Sequence record: NC_049832.1
DNA: 50,168 nucleotides
Direction: 5' to 3' (one strand)
Source: Escherichia phage vB_EcoS-DELF2
The translations under genes and the position numbers were made by a program. The notes beneath the pieces were generated by a model that made no database searches, was not told the origin of the DNA, and saw only the letters and a program-made list of their open reading frames with translations. The stretch's first letter is position 1. Every line of letters begins with the position of its first letter. This document shows, piece after piece, positions 43,507 to 48,237 of this stretch.

Positions 43507-46380
43507 TTAGCCTCCCGTTTTTTCCTGAATGTAATTGTAAACCTCACCGCCCTGCGAACAAGACTCTCGAATCATTTTTTTGAACATCATTTCTACGCCC
43601 TGAGAAATTCCTCTCGGATCTGAACCGTTGTCAACTTTAACCTCCATACCCCTAACATCAACGACCGTCCCGCCTGCTGACTGGTTCGCTGCCTTCGGTG
43701 CGGATTTAGATGCGTTAAATCCAGAGGTTGCAACACTACCCGCAGCGGCAGCAAGCGAGGTAACGGCAACGCCTGAAGATAAAGACCTAAAACCAGAGAC
43801 GGCAGGTGTAGGAGTTGCCTGTGATGCCGCAGAAGCGCTAGAGGTCAATCCACTTGCAAAACTCCATGTCTTACCTCCCGTCATGCCTGAGATCGTATTG
43901 AAGATTACCATCTGAGCAATCATCTTGATAATCATGCTAATGATATTTTTCGCAAAGTCCTCAAAATTTGCCTTACCTGTAGTAAGGAATTGAGTCATCA
44001 TATCACTCATTCCGTTAAGTGAACTTGACGCGATATCATACACGTTGCCGTACATATCCATTGCAGAATCGCCGTAATCTGCAAATGCGCTTTCAGCACC
44101 AGCCAACCAGTCAGCGCGCTTGGCATCTTCCGCAGCATAGTAATCATTTTGTGCCTTGATCATGTTCTGGAGTTTTTCATCTCCTTCGCTGCCACCTGCA
44201 TTAATATAGTCAGTGGTGATCTTAGCCAGTTCCGCTTGTCGTTCCATTTCTCGGGTGCTCATCCCGCGAGACGCGTTTAGCTGCTCTGTAGCTGCCGTCA
44301 AATCATTGACAAATTTCAGTGATTTATCGGTAAGTGCGTTCAACTGCTGCTGCTTAACAATCTGATCGCCAATCTCAGCCTTTTGTTTCGCAAGCTCTAA
44401 AACCTTCTCTTGGTTTGCAAGTAGTGCTTTTTCTTCCGCAGATAGCTGACGCTTAGAACTAGCTTCTCGAAGAACAGCAATTGTAGCCTCAGTCGTAAAA
44501 AGCGCCTTTCTCTGTGCTGATATTTTTTGCCCGATCTCCTTGTGCTCCTGCAAAACCTTAAGCTGCGCTTTGAGTGAAATTAACTCCTTATCGAATTGCT
44601 CTGTAGGTGAGCGTAAAATTTTCGACTGCTTATTTCGTTCACGGTTTCGCTTTTCGATCTCTTTAGCTTCTTCCTTGATAGCGTCCTTAGTTTCCTGGCT
44701 ATACTGCTTTTCAAGAGTACGGCGCTGCTTCATTGCTTCAATGTATCCCATCTCACCTTTTTCAACACGGGCGTTAATGGCATCAAGCTCTGAAGCTAAC
44801 TGATCGTAGTTGTCACGAGAGCTTTTTACAATATTCTCCTGTTCCTTTAGTACATCAGCACCAAAATCACTCATGCCAGGCAGAGACTGTGTAGCCTTAA
44901 TTGCAGATGCGATAAAGTTTGAGATGTACTCATCACCCTTAGCAAGAATCATTTTCACCTGAATTACCGTACCTTGAACTACGTCAATAATCAGGTTTAA
45001 CGCTCCGAGCGTATGATCCCCAACCCATCCCCACGCATCAGAAGCCCATTGCTTAATATCTTTCCACATTTTTTCCAGAGGGGTAGCATTATCAGCGATC
45101 GACTTCATTCGTTTTTCCATTACATCAGCGAATAATTTCGTGGCTTCAGACACTGCCTCTGTTTCACCCTTAGTACGGCTTAGCGTATCGATATATGTCA
45201 GTTGCCCTTTTTCTAAAAAGTTGTATTGCTCGTTAAGTTTAGCCAGACCCTTTACAGGATCGCTTGCGATTTTATCGAACTCAGCGATGATTTTACTTGC
45301 TGATTTACCGGTTGCTGTCGACCACTCAGCGGTAGCCTTTGTGATGTTCTGAATCTGCTCTCGCGTATACTTCCCCGTACTGGCAAGTTCAGTAACAATC
45401 TCACGAATGCTTGAAATTGTTGAATTGCTCGTCTGAGCCACCTTTTTAGCAACAGAATCAAGTTCTTCAGCCGTGACTCCTGCATAACCTCCAGTCTCAA
45501 CAAGAGCCTTCTGCATATCAGTTATTGACTTGTAAGAGTCATAACCAGCTTTCGCAAGAAGACCTAAAGAGCCGACAAGAACACCAACACCAACTGTGAC
45601 CGGATTAATATAGCTGAGCAATACCTTAAATGTATTGCCGATCCCGCCGAACGAGTCCTTGATTTGACCGCCTTGCTGGATGGCAACCATCCAAACTGGC
45701 ATACCGGACGCAAGAGATGTAACGACGTCGGTAATCTGCGCGGGAAGCATTCGCATTGCCTGCCTATATTGCCCCGCGCTAATACCTGCGGCATTCATAG
45801 CTCGACCCTGCTCTTTAAGTTTTGCGATCAGTGGCGCTGCTTCATTTGATAGTCCAAGCTGAGCCGCTTTCAGTTCCATTAACTCTGCGTGAGTTTTGCC
45901 AATAGCGTTAACCTGACTGTTCAGGGAATCCATGAACGCTTTGTTTTTCGCTGCTGCCTGCTCTTTTGCTTTCGCTTCCTGCAATGCTGCCTGCCCCTCT
46001 TCAGTAAGCATGGCTCGGCTGCGAGCAAGTTTTGCATTTTGCATGTCCAGCATTTCACCCAAACGGAAAAATGTTTCATCTGGAACAACGCCCTTTTGCC
46101 AGAGTTTATCAAGCTGCTGAGATGCAATCTTCAGCTTTTCCATTTTTGATACTGTAGGATCGATTGCCTTTTCTACAGCCTCGTACTCTTTGCGCTGGCG
46201 CTTAAGTTGCTCAGCGTGTTCTTTAGCCTTCTGTTTTGCAACCTCGGCCTCATTGATTAAAGACCCCATAGAGTCAGCGGCCTGATCGTTGGCCTTTGAA
46301 AACTCTTTCAGTGACTTGACTGCGCGCTGCACTGTTGACACATCAACGTCAAGCGACAGACCTGCTACCTTATCAACCAT
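43507..46380 (-). CDS. tail tape measure protein
   Basis: 957 aa, long coiled-coil, Gly/Ala/Ser-rich C-terminal region; follows G/GT chaperone. Confidence 0.9.
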
Positions 46381-46397
46381 ATAACCCCCTATATACG

Positions 46398-46420
46398 AAA
46401 AAACCGCCAGACGGCGGCTT
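46398..46420 (-). terminator. hairpin CCGCC-GTCT-GGCGG plus T-run
   Basis: Between T-frame ORF and tape measure start. Confidence 0.5.
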
Positions 46421-46688
46421 AGTTATTCTGCTTAGCAATCATTTCAAGCGCTTTCGCTTCCATGATCCTAACGTCCTGCAATGCCAGTTCTTCATCTTCT
46501 ATTTTATAGATTTTAAACAACATAGGCAAAACATTATAGTCAAGACCATAAGCGCCAGCGCCTGAACTTCTCCACTGAGTGAGCATTGATGTAAAAACAT
46601 TCCAAGCCTTCACCATTTCAGCGTCGCCAATTATCGTTTCAGGTTCCTCGTCTTCATAGTCTGAAAGACTTAAACCAACCGATCGCAA
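46419..46688 (-). CDS. tail assembly chaperone -1 frame extension (T-like part of GT)
   Basis: In -1 frame relative to 46736..47053; open from slippery site. Confidence 0.55.
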
Positions 46689-46735
46689 TTGTTCCTCTGT
46701 TGGCGGCTTCTGATATAACAGATAGACCGCCTTTT

Positions 46736-47053
46736 TTAGTTTTTTGCGCGGTGTCCGGCAAGAGCCTTGATGTAAGTCGCTGTCAGGTTGTACGCTGCTG
46801 AAGGATAATACTGAACCAGTTTTCGCGCATTTTCTTCGTTAAATTCTTCTTCAAGGTTCCATCCTGACGCGATCTTGGTAATGAACTCGCTGTCGTTCAT
46901 TTCTCCCTGGTTGGCATACATATCCTGAACTTCTTTACTGGAAAGGTGGCGTACAGTGAAAATGATCGTTGCATCTTCACCGTTAGGCATGGTGAAGGTA
47001 ACTGGAAGTTTGAAGTCTGGAAGTTGACCAAGAATAAAATTAAATTTAGCCAT
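46736..47053 (-). CDS. tail assembly chaperone (lambda G-like)
   Basis: Between major tail and tape measure; ends with AAAAAAC slippery heptamer; AACCAATCAGGAG leader. Confidence 0.65.
   Translation of the reverse strand: MAKFNFILGQLPDFKLPVTFTMPNGEDATIIFTVRHLSSKEVQDMYANQGEMNDSEFITKIASGWNLEEEFNEENARKLVQYYPSAAYNLTATYIKALAGHRAKN
46739..46745 (-). other. -1 programmed ribosomal frameshift slippery heptamer A_AAA_AAC
   Basis: Last codons GCA AAA AAC TAA; -1 frame continues into 46419..46688. Confidence 0.6.
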
Positions 47054-47127
47054 GATATTTCTCCTGATTGGTTAATGGCACTTTTTGTTAAAAGAGAATA
47101 GTGCAAACTTGATACGATGATTTTACA

Positions 47128-47156
47128 GAAATGAATAAGGGGGCGCAAGCCCCCTT
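47128..47156 (-). terminator. hairpin GGGGGC-GCAA-GCCCCC after major tail gene
   Basis: Read directly. Confidence 0.6.
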
Positions 47157-47167
47157 GTGGATATGAT

Positions 47168-47836
47168 TTAGGCACCAGGTGATGCCAGAGCGGATGAAAC
47201 GAAAGTGAAATCACCCTTCAGGGATACGGCGAGTTGTACCGTTTCCATTTCGTTTACTTGCGTAGATGGAATGTCGTTAAAAGACAAGATACCAGCCCAC
47301 ATGCGCATCTCGTTCGCTTTTGGAACATACATCCGAACCGCAGTTACCTGACCAGAAGAATCCAGCTTACGCAGAATAGGGTAGATCGGGTTATCAAATT
47401 CGTGCGCGAATGTGTAAGTTAGCGAGATCGCAGATTTAAACGTTGGGATCTGCTGTTCTTTATCGTCGGACAAGCACTGATAAGTGTAATACTGCTGCTC
47501 GCCGCCGTCCTGACCAATCTCCTGTACGCAAGGAATCTCAGTCCAGCCAGTAATTTTTGCAAAGCTCATCGTACCGCCAGCCGGGAAAACAAGAGTATCA
47601 GAGGTGTCAATCCCAGCGAGAGTGATGCTTGTTTCCTGAGCGTCAGTAACAATTAGCACTCGACTGACCATATTGGCCCAGGTTGACTGAGTTACAATAA
47701 CGTAATCGCCTTTTACTAAGTCACCCTTAGATGCAACTGTAGCAACAGGATTTTCTGCGTTAGTAATAGCGGTTGCCTCAATCTCTTCTCCGCGAGAGGT
47801 TTCCACGAAAATTTGCGCGCCATTTGGTAAGTGCAT
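47168..47836 (-). CDS. major tail protein
   Basis: Upstream of chaperone and tape measure; AAGGAG RBS before ATG 47836; terminator after gene. Confidence 0.7.
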   Translation of the reverse strand: MHLPNGAQIFVETSRGEEIEATAITNAENPVATVASKGDLVKGDYVIVTQSTWANMVSRVLIVTDAQETSITLAGIDTSDTLVFPAGGTMSFAKITGWTEIPCVQEIGQDGGEQQYYTYQCLSDDKEQQIPTFKSAISLTYTFAHEFDNPIYPILRKLDSSGQVTAVRMYVPKANEMRMWAGILSFNDIPSTQVNEMETVQLAVSLKGDFTFVSSALASPGA

Positions 47837-47838
47837 AA

Positions 47839-48237
47839 TTAAGTCTCCTTTGTGTCTACTCGTACTGTAAAGCGAACCGGAATCATCCACCCGCTTTCAT
47901 GTTTAACAATTTGATGCACGATTGCACCCTCGAAAATATAACCAACGTTAAGCATTTTACCATCTTTGAAAAAATCAGCAATCTCTTTTGCTTTCAATCT
48001 TGCTTCGTCAACGCCGGATCCTGGAGGGAACACTACTCCGATCTGAACGATTGCGATGTAAGATTTACACTTCCTGTCAATGGATAGATAAAGCGTATCC
48101 CCTTCAATGTAGTTGAACCTCAGCCACATCCCGCCATCCTTCGGCGGTATGAAATTTCTGTTTTCCATGTAGTGAGGAAAGTCTCTGTACTTTGATAGAA
48201 AAGCGGCTCGCGCCGCCGCTGATAACTCATAGTGCAT
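47839..48237 (-). CDS. tail terminator-like protein (putative)
   Basis: Position immediately upstream of major tail gene. Confidence 0.4.
   Translation of the reverse strand: MHYELSAAARAAFLSKYRDFPHYMENRNFIPPKDGGMWLRFNYIEGDTLYLSIDRKCKSYIAIVQIGVVFPPGSGVDEARLKAKEIADFFKDGKMLNVGYIFEGAIVHQIVKHESGWMIPVRFTVRVDTKET

Follow-up and report, generated by a model that had tools for sequence, protein, structure and literature searches.

A probable T1-type programmed -1 frameshift in the tail assembly chaperone genes of Escherichia phage vB_EcoS-DELF2

Xu, Hendrix and Duda reportedly described in 2004 a G/GT-type tail assembly chaperone frameshift of long-tailed phages, which uses a -1 overlap and, rarely, +1. 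The phenomenon is summarised in PMC5009743 (after Levin et al. 1993 and Xu et al. 2004), where the lambda G:GT ratio is given as about 30:1. In lambda, the mechanism, the ratio, and the binding partners have been established by experiment, whereas the family treated here is known from sequence comparison. In phage T1 (AY216660.1), a joined 635-nt CDS is annotated as "tape measure chaperone, frameshift product" beside a 318-nt short CDS, and the products of this pair (CPTT1_038, AAP49960.1, 105 aa; CPTT1_039, AAP50000.2, 211 aa) have the lengths predicted for the locus that we describe. A conserved frameshift in T1-like phages is mentioned in genome papers (PMC4319613, PMC8104045), and the chaperone of Escherichia coli phage U136B is likewise annotated as a frameshift (PMC8104045). 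Joined -1 CDSs with the same Pfam families and gene order are found in Citrobacter phage Stevie (YP_009148721.1), Klebsiella phage KLPN1 (AKS10675.1), and U136B (QRV71246.1), Drexlerviridae whose chaperones show 47 to 57% protein identity to ours.

The DNA analyzed here, called the window throughout, is a stretch of 50,168 nt from Escherichia phage vB_EcoS-DELF2 (NC_049832.1). This phage is a Tunavirus, a T1-like siphophage of the Drexlerviridae. From 46300 to 47200, the window shows a DNA identity of 99.2% with Shigella phage vB_SsoS-ISF002 and of about 90% with T1, and its chaperone locus is orthologous to the one for which T1 has an annotated frameshift product, with an equal 635-nt joined CDS. 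We conclude from sequence comparison that the locus very probably carries a T1-type G/GT tail assembly chaperone programmed -1 frameshift, by which two proteins would be made from one start codon. A G/GT-type frameshift had been claimed for this DNA in an earlier, sequence-only reading, and gene position, Pfam families, a phased heptamer, conservation, and the T1 annotation now support that claim.

The chaperone locus and its shift site

The genes of the locus all lie on the minus strand, in the order tube, chaperone pair, and tape measure (Table 1). The sequence-only reading had placed the pair between the major tail and tape measure genes, and the Pfam matches on either side bear this out, with PF08813 upstream and the lambda-type tape measure domains PF06791 and PF09718 downstream. 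The locus thereby shows one property of G/GT systems, two same-strand ORFs between the tube gene (47836..47168) and the tape measure gene (46380..43507). As a side observation, the tube ORF called mechanically reaches GTG 47890; relatives use a 669-nt version starting MHLPNGAQ, and 669 nt is the length of the tube gene in the ISF002, T1, and SA32RD annotations.

Table 1. Features of the tail chaperone locus in the window
Feature	Coordinates	Strand	Details
Major tail tube gene	47168..47836	-	PF08813 Phage_tail_3, E 6.5e-70; phrog_584 major tail protein
Terminator-like hairpin (8 pairs) and U-rich tail	47137..47156	-	-15.7 kcal/mol, z -4.6; between tube and chaperone genes
Shine-Dalgarno AGGAG	47061..47065	-	7 nt before chaperone ATG; read from sequence
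Whole frameshifted coding region, 635 nt, predicted 211-aa long chaperone ("GT" equivalent)	46419..47053	-	Length equals joined CDS of T1 AY216660.1
Short chaperone ORF ("G" equivalent), 105 aa and TAA	46736..47053	-	PF08748 Phage_TAC_4, E 1.8e-36
Slippery heptamer A_AAA_AAC	46739..46745	-	Phased X_XXY_YYZ; zero-frame TAA directly 3'
-1 frame extension ("T" equivalent), 108 codons from heptamer to TAA 46421..46419	46419..46745	-	PF08809 DUF1799, E 1.3e-11; phrog_17368, phrog_680
Two-tier hairpin (6 + 4 pairs), candidate stimulator	46702..46731	-	Starts 7 nt after heptamer; -14.0 kcal/mol, z -4.2
Terminator-like hairpin (8 pairs) and UUUUUU	46401..46420	-	-12.3 kcal/mol, z -3.2; overlaps extension stop
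Tape measure gene, 957 aa	43507..46380	-	PF06791 TMP_2, E 7.7e-75; PF09718 Tape_meas_lam_C, E 7e-25

The short ORF runs from ATG 47053 to the TAA at 46738..46736 and encodes a protein identical to ISF002 YP_009609276.1; at the position homologous to 47061..47065, the T1 record carries an annotated ribosome binding site. Its last codons are GCA AAA AAC TAA, and this ending, together with the A_AAA_AAC heptamer, had been read from the sequence correctly to the base, on the minus strand. The AAA and AAC of the heptamer are zero-frame codons, so the phase fits X_XXY_YYZ, and the slippery sequence is thus set for tRNA re-pairing, as in G/GT systems generally. In the -1 frame, no stop interrupts the sequence between a point 100 nt upstream of the zero-frame stop and 46419. 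A slip of -1 into the frame of ORF 46419..46688, the other element of the original reading, also held up: translation from 46745 remains open until the TAA at 46421..46419, that is, for 106 codons beyond the short ORF, and the remaining two frames are closed by many stops. ORF 46419..46688 is simply the portion of this -1 frame that lies downstream of its first start-like codon, a TTG, and no ATG, GTG, or TTG occurs in the -1 frame of the extension (46419..46745) before 46688. The overlap is therefore of the G/GT kind, -1 and with no conserved start codon of its own in the downstream ORF.

Both parts of the predicted fusion scored well above the curated Pfam thresholds (PF08748, 125.6 bits versus a cut-off of 21.1; PF08809, 44.9 bits versus a cut-off of 26), and no Pfam families other than Phage_TAC_4 and DUF1799 were found in the chaperone proteins at an E value of ≤0.01. 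The short ORF matches positions 1 to 107 and the extension matches positions 107 to 212 of phrog_17368 (213 positions); because this family spans both ORFs, fused chaperones are already present in phage databases. A PDB sequence search with the fusion gave chance-level matches only (proteasome alpha-2, E about 0.09).

One could take the heptamer with its open -1 frame for a coincidence or a relic without function, only the short chaperone being of importance. Bare AAAAAAC is common in the window (23 observed versus 14.8 expected), as this reading would have it, and the heptamer by itself is not significant. The six frames contain 139 stop-to-stop ORFs of 80 codons or more, and each was checked for a phased heptamer within a -1 overlap together with a -1 extension of 50 codons or more. 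Three of the 139 ORFs in the window had this combination, and among these three, 46736..47053 had the longest extension (106 codons) and was the sole case in which the heptamer abutted the stop. The full configuration is beyond chance.

Conservation of the shift site and of the -1 frame

A tblastn search with the conceptual fusion matched 1,146 phage records, 1,067 of them with a query coverage of at least 80%, and every match listed consisted of two pieces in two frames. Retention of the arrangement across more than 1,000 phage records, the Pfam and PHROG matches of the extension, its pattern of purifying selection (see below), and the rarity of the configuration within the window all speak against coincidence or relic, a reading to which we assign practically no probability and which conservation excludes.

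We sampled 101 shift sites from annotated phages and IMG/VR, which reduced to 76 distinct shift regions. A_AAA_AAC stands directly before the stop in 52 of the 76 distinct loci, in Tunavirus, Tempevirinae, and others; these include Dhillonvirus bob, HK639, and Serratia phage Susuwatari, whose short proteins are only 39%, 33%, and 27% identical, respectively, to that of the window. The remaining distinct loci have G_GGA_AAC before the stop (1/76, Pseudomonas phage PS-1), GCA AAA GTY/GCC TAA (17/76, Webervirus), GCA AAG GTC TAA (5/76, Rogunavirinae), or an A-run shorter by one base (1/76, the metagenomic relative L047), which in this last case is probably a homopolymer error or an indel. Comparison with related phages had been proposed as a check on the original reading, and its outcome, with the downstream -1-frame ORF conserved and the heptamer plus stop present in most distinct loci, was favorable.

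Despite divergence, relatives retain both the shift site and the layout in two frames, again as in G/GT systems, the exceptions being Webervirus and Rogunavirinae, which are without the heptamer. These two clades keep the two-frame layout, and only an A_AAA or A_AAG tetramer is left at their sites. Because they have no canonical heptamer, it would appear either that the heptamer is not strictly needed in this protein family or that Webervirus and Rogunavirinae use a one-tRNA slip on A_AAA/A_AAG. The zero-frame stop abuts the shift site in 75 of the 76 distinct loci, the heptamer-less clades included; the exception is L047.

These comparisons also bear on transcriptional slippage, in which RNA polymerase would add one A within the A6 run, so that the mRNA itself would fuse the frames and no ribosomal slip would be involved. 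Conservation at the site falls on the codon phase and on the C in position 7, as tandem tRNA re-pairing predicts. The site is G_GGA_AAC in PS-1 and has only three or four A's in Webervirus and Rogunavirinae, and because these phages do not have A6, the homopolymer is not the conserved feature. An inserted A would, it is true, lead to an identical ...AKKLKK... protein; runs of A7 occur in HK639 and bob, and the run in L047 is one A shorter, so that run length appears to be error-prone in sequencing or replication. However, bacterial RNA polymerase as a rule slips efficiently only on runs of about nine (PMC5009743), of which A6 falls short, and we consider transcriptional slippage highly improbable as the source of the fusion.

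Downstream of the shift site, the predicted post-shift peptide, K-K-L-K-R/K-A-V-Y-L-x-Y-Q-K-P-P-T, is conserved from its first codon on. We made an ungapped alignment of 46 distinct sequences over the 14 codons just 3' of the stop and examined it for a coding signature. Column entropy was 1.37 at -1-frame third positions versus 0.65 and 0.67 at first and second positions, and 44.5% of codon differences from the window were synonymous in the -1 frame versus 0.9% and 19.9% in the other frames. Judged by this signature, the stretch from the stop to the first possible start has been evolving as protein-coding DNA in no frame but -1.

This stretch is informative about internal initiation, by which translation from TTG 46688 or ATG 46616 would yield DUF1799 as a separate protein of 89 or 65 aa, respectively, with no frameshift. 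Most GenBank records of close relatives do annotate the downstream ORF separately, as a 270-nt CDS from TTG in ISF002, LHE71, and SA32RD and as a 198-nt CDS from ATG in ADB-2 and SH6, and 5 nt separate TTG 46688 of the window from a GAGG on its 5' side. However, this TTG, which lies 19 codons past the heptamer and is the first start-like -1-frame codon of the window, is a synonymous Leu codon that reads TTA in T1 and ADB-2, and the first start-like codon of the -1 frame shifts position between clades, being found 43, 19, 24, 9, or 6 codons downstream or 24 codons upstream. Moreover, the 14 codons that separate the G stop from the TTG encode a conserved peptide, and their variation clearly follows the third positions of the -1 frame; since this coding signal lies 5' of TTG 46688, the stretch that carries it is unreachable by independent initiation. 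Internal initiation would also leave without reason the conservation of the heptamer and stop down to 27% protein identity. It is thus very unlikely that an internal start replaces the frameshift, and internal initiation could occur alongside frameshifting.

Candidate stimulators and flanking hairpins

Candidate enhancers of the proposed frameshift are the stop that immediately follows the heptamer and perhaps also the hairpin that begins 7 nt downstream. At the adjacent stop, ribosomes might pause before termination and so slip more readily. The structure of the hairpin (46731..46702) was derived from the window sequence, and when it was placed on 46 relatives, 76.5% of cells were paired versus 30 to 51% in slid controls. 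Five of its pairs change on both sides, but the arms encode conserved Ala-Val and Pro-Pro. The hairpin is present in many relatives and is broken in several that bear the heptamer. RNAalifold gave no consensus structure for the 46 distinct shift-site regions, and for this reason we claim no conserved stimulatory RNA. An Rfam scan of 46200..47300 at an E value of ≤1 returned a chance match only (SCARNA7, 13.8 bits versus a gathering score of 65), and no dnaX-type Shine-Dalgarno-like element was found 5' of the heptamer, the upstream sequence GCUCUUGCCGGACACCGCGC being without a GGAGG-like element.

A second heptamer, A_AAA_AAG, lies in the -1 frame at 46737..46731 and arises from the AAA AAG of the ISF002-like subgroup. 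One could combine the two observations into a joint reading in which the PF08748/PF08809 pair has a "shifty stop" design, with slow termination as the real stimulator, and the second, highly slippery heptamer diverts part of the GT-committed ribosomes to the third frame. As regards the first half, slow termination would perhaps be helped by the lineage-specific hairpin downstream; the second half, if true, would mean a lower GT yield or a third product (G plus KK plus a third-frame peptide). We consider the joint reading unlikely and prefer the simple T1-type -1 frameshift.

The sequence-only reading had also noted a hairpin and U-tract after the extension and before the tape measure gene, and an 8-pair hairpin with a T-tract was indeed located at 46420..46401, with 20 nt between it and the tape measure ATG (46380). 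A rho-independent terminator is annotated at the equivalent site in T1, SA32RD, and Stevie. On the other side of the chaperone pair, a terminator is annotated at the site equivalent to 47137..47156 in SA32RD, Stevie, and HK639. The hairpins flanking the pair would be leaky and would probably lower transcription stepwise, from the abundant tube protein through the chaperones to the low-copy tape measure protein.

Proposed mechanism and comparison with T1 and lambda

We propose that most ribosomes translate 47053..46739 and terminate at the TAA, which would release the 105-aa short chaperone (Phage_TAC_4). A minority would slip back by one base on A_AAA_AAC (46745..46739), where tRNA-Lys and tRNA-Asn, paired with AAA and AAC, would re-pair with AAA and AAA. 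Slipped ribosomes would bypass the adjoining stop and continue in the -1 frame for another 106 codons, and the resulting 211-aa chaperone would end in a DUF1799 domain. By extrapolation from lambda, the slipping fraction would be a few percent of ribosomes. The division of labor may likewise be modeled on lambda: the common N-terminal part would coat or bind the tape measure protein, the rare long form would use its C-terminal domain to recruit the tail tube protein, neither form would be present in the virion, and a fixed low rate of frameshifting would set the ratio of short to long form. The lambda basis for binding of the N-terminal part to the tape measure protein and of the T domain to the tube protein, and for absence from virions, is given in PMC5009743.

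The residue at the junction would depend on the mechanism, Asn being expected from a tandem slip and Lys from a P-site slip before A-site decoding. The extension peptide given in the sequence-only reading stands, whereas its junction, written AKK-LKK, does not follow from a tandem slip: if both tRNAs slip together, Asn is decoded before the slip and the junction reads ...HRAKN-LKKAVY.... The T1 GenBank entry uses the Lys junction (AKK-LKK), and the T1 fusion, when rebuilt by a one-base step back at the homologous heptamer, matches AAP50000.2 (211 aa) exactly.

The main value of the result is in annotation quality. The fusion is not annotated in ISF002, Sfin-1, pSf-2, and the other closest records, and the nearest relatives, LHE71 included, instead carry two separate ORFs labeled "hypothetical" or, wrongly, "tail length tape measure protein"; ISF002, the Sfin phages, pSf-2, and LHE71 thus miss the 211-aa fusion that the T1 reference carries. 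The window's own fusion sequence was not found in the protein collection, and in the literature searched we found no experimental detection of the fusion protein in T1 or close relatives. The window frameshift opens no new biological question. The comparative set, with heptamer plus stop in many genera and two clades without the heptamer, could be used to ask what drives low-level frameshifting.

Within the Drexlerviridae, Stevie and most Tempevirinae have A_AAA_AAC with an adjoining stop, as does the window; KLPN1 and other Webervirus have GCA AAA GTT TAA, with no canonical heptamer, and their shift site is only putative. A_AAA_AAC is reported to be much less shift-prone than A_AAA_AAG in E. 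coli, yet it is a recognised -1 heptamer (PMC5009743), and a site this weak suits a low-level shift and a low GT:G ratio. The lambda heptamer is G_GGA_AAG, whereas that of the window is A_AAA_AAC with the zero-frame stop directly abutting it. Lambda gpG and gpGT, at roughly 140 and 280 aa, are also longer than the 105- and 211-aa products predicted from the window. No sequence relationship is detectable between the two sets of proteins. The likeness to lambda gpG/gpGT lies in the position of the pair between the major tail and tape measure genes and in a short product and a -1 long product with a common N terminus.

The likeness to T1 is far closer. T1 and the window have in common the GCA AAA AAC TAA shift site, the flanking terminators, and the ribosome binding sites, and they differ by a few amino acid substitutions; just past the shift, the window and the ISF002-like subgroup have AAA AAG (Lys-Lys), whereas T1 has AAA AGG (Lys-Arg). 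The T1-type tail chaperone frameshift is already known, and because T1 itself already carries an annotated version, the frameshift of the window is an ordinary member of this type.

Naming and limits of the chaperone and tail tube genes

In RefSeq records of close relatives, both chaperone ORFs (e.g., NC_041995.1, locus L002:1648-2282) are called "tail length tape measure protein," a label identical to the name of the true tape measure gene. The same description is attached to phrog_569, phrog_17368 and phrog_680, and the RefSeq misnaming seems to be derived from these PHROG family labels. On the chaperone ORFs, the name is a propagating misannotation. The neighboring tail tube gene was delimited mechanically as an ORF of 240 aa with a GTG start (47168..47890, minus strand). 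The tail tube protein annotated in relatives is 222 aa long and begins at the ATG at 47836 (MHLPNGAQ...), and Pfam and PHROG matches to the 240-aa ORF start only past residue 19.

Hairpins flanking the chaperone pair

The chaperone pair is flanked by two terminator-like hairpins and should lie within one late tail operon. Terminators are annotated at both hairpins in the relatives SA32RD and Stevie, at the downstream one in T1 and at the upstream one in HK639. The hairpins may produce a stepwise drop in expression from the tube protein to the chaperones to the tape measure protein.

Hairpins and second slippery heptamer
Feature	Coordinates	Strand	Value or basis
Terminator-like hairpin, upstream of chaperone pair	47137..47156	minus	-15.7 kcal/mol
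Terminator-like hairpin, downstream of chaperone pair	46401..46420	minus	-12.3 kcal/mol
Second slippery heptamer, A_AAA_AAG	46731..46737	minus	sequence; phase is the -1 (T) frame, CUA AAA AAG

Departures from the canonical shift site

Two clades have no X_XXY_YYZ heptamer: the short ORF ends GCA AAA GTY TAA in Webervirus (L005/L007/L076-L101) and GCA AAG GTC TAA in Rogunavirinae (L013/L060/L063-L065). Both retain the two-frame layout with the adjacent stop, and the Webervirus phage KLPN1 carries an annotated joined CDS. In these clades the long product may arise either by slippage of a single tRNA on A_AAA or A_AAG, or from a start codon in the overlap; the Webervirus -1 frame has a TTG or GTG 24 codons 5' of the site. 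A related IMG/VR locus (L047:1200-1225, IMGVR_UViG_2974632794_000001) has five A's rather than six in the run at the shift site (GTA AAA ACT AAA AAG). Because of the missing A, the short ORF extends 17 codons into the third frame, and the T frame becomes +1 relative to it. The five-A run could be a natural variant but is probably a homopolymer sequencing error.

A second heptamer in the -1 frame

Two bases past the first heptamer, the T frame contains A_AAA_AAG, which in E. coli is more prone to shifting than any other heptamer. Another -1 slip there would yield G + KK + [24 protein letters not shown]. This in-frame heptamer is confined to a subgroup resembling Shigella phage ISF002 (the window, L002, L003, L022 and L026), which carries AAA AAG, whereas T1 and the remaining relatives have AAA AGG at this position.
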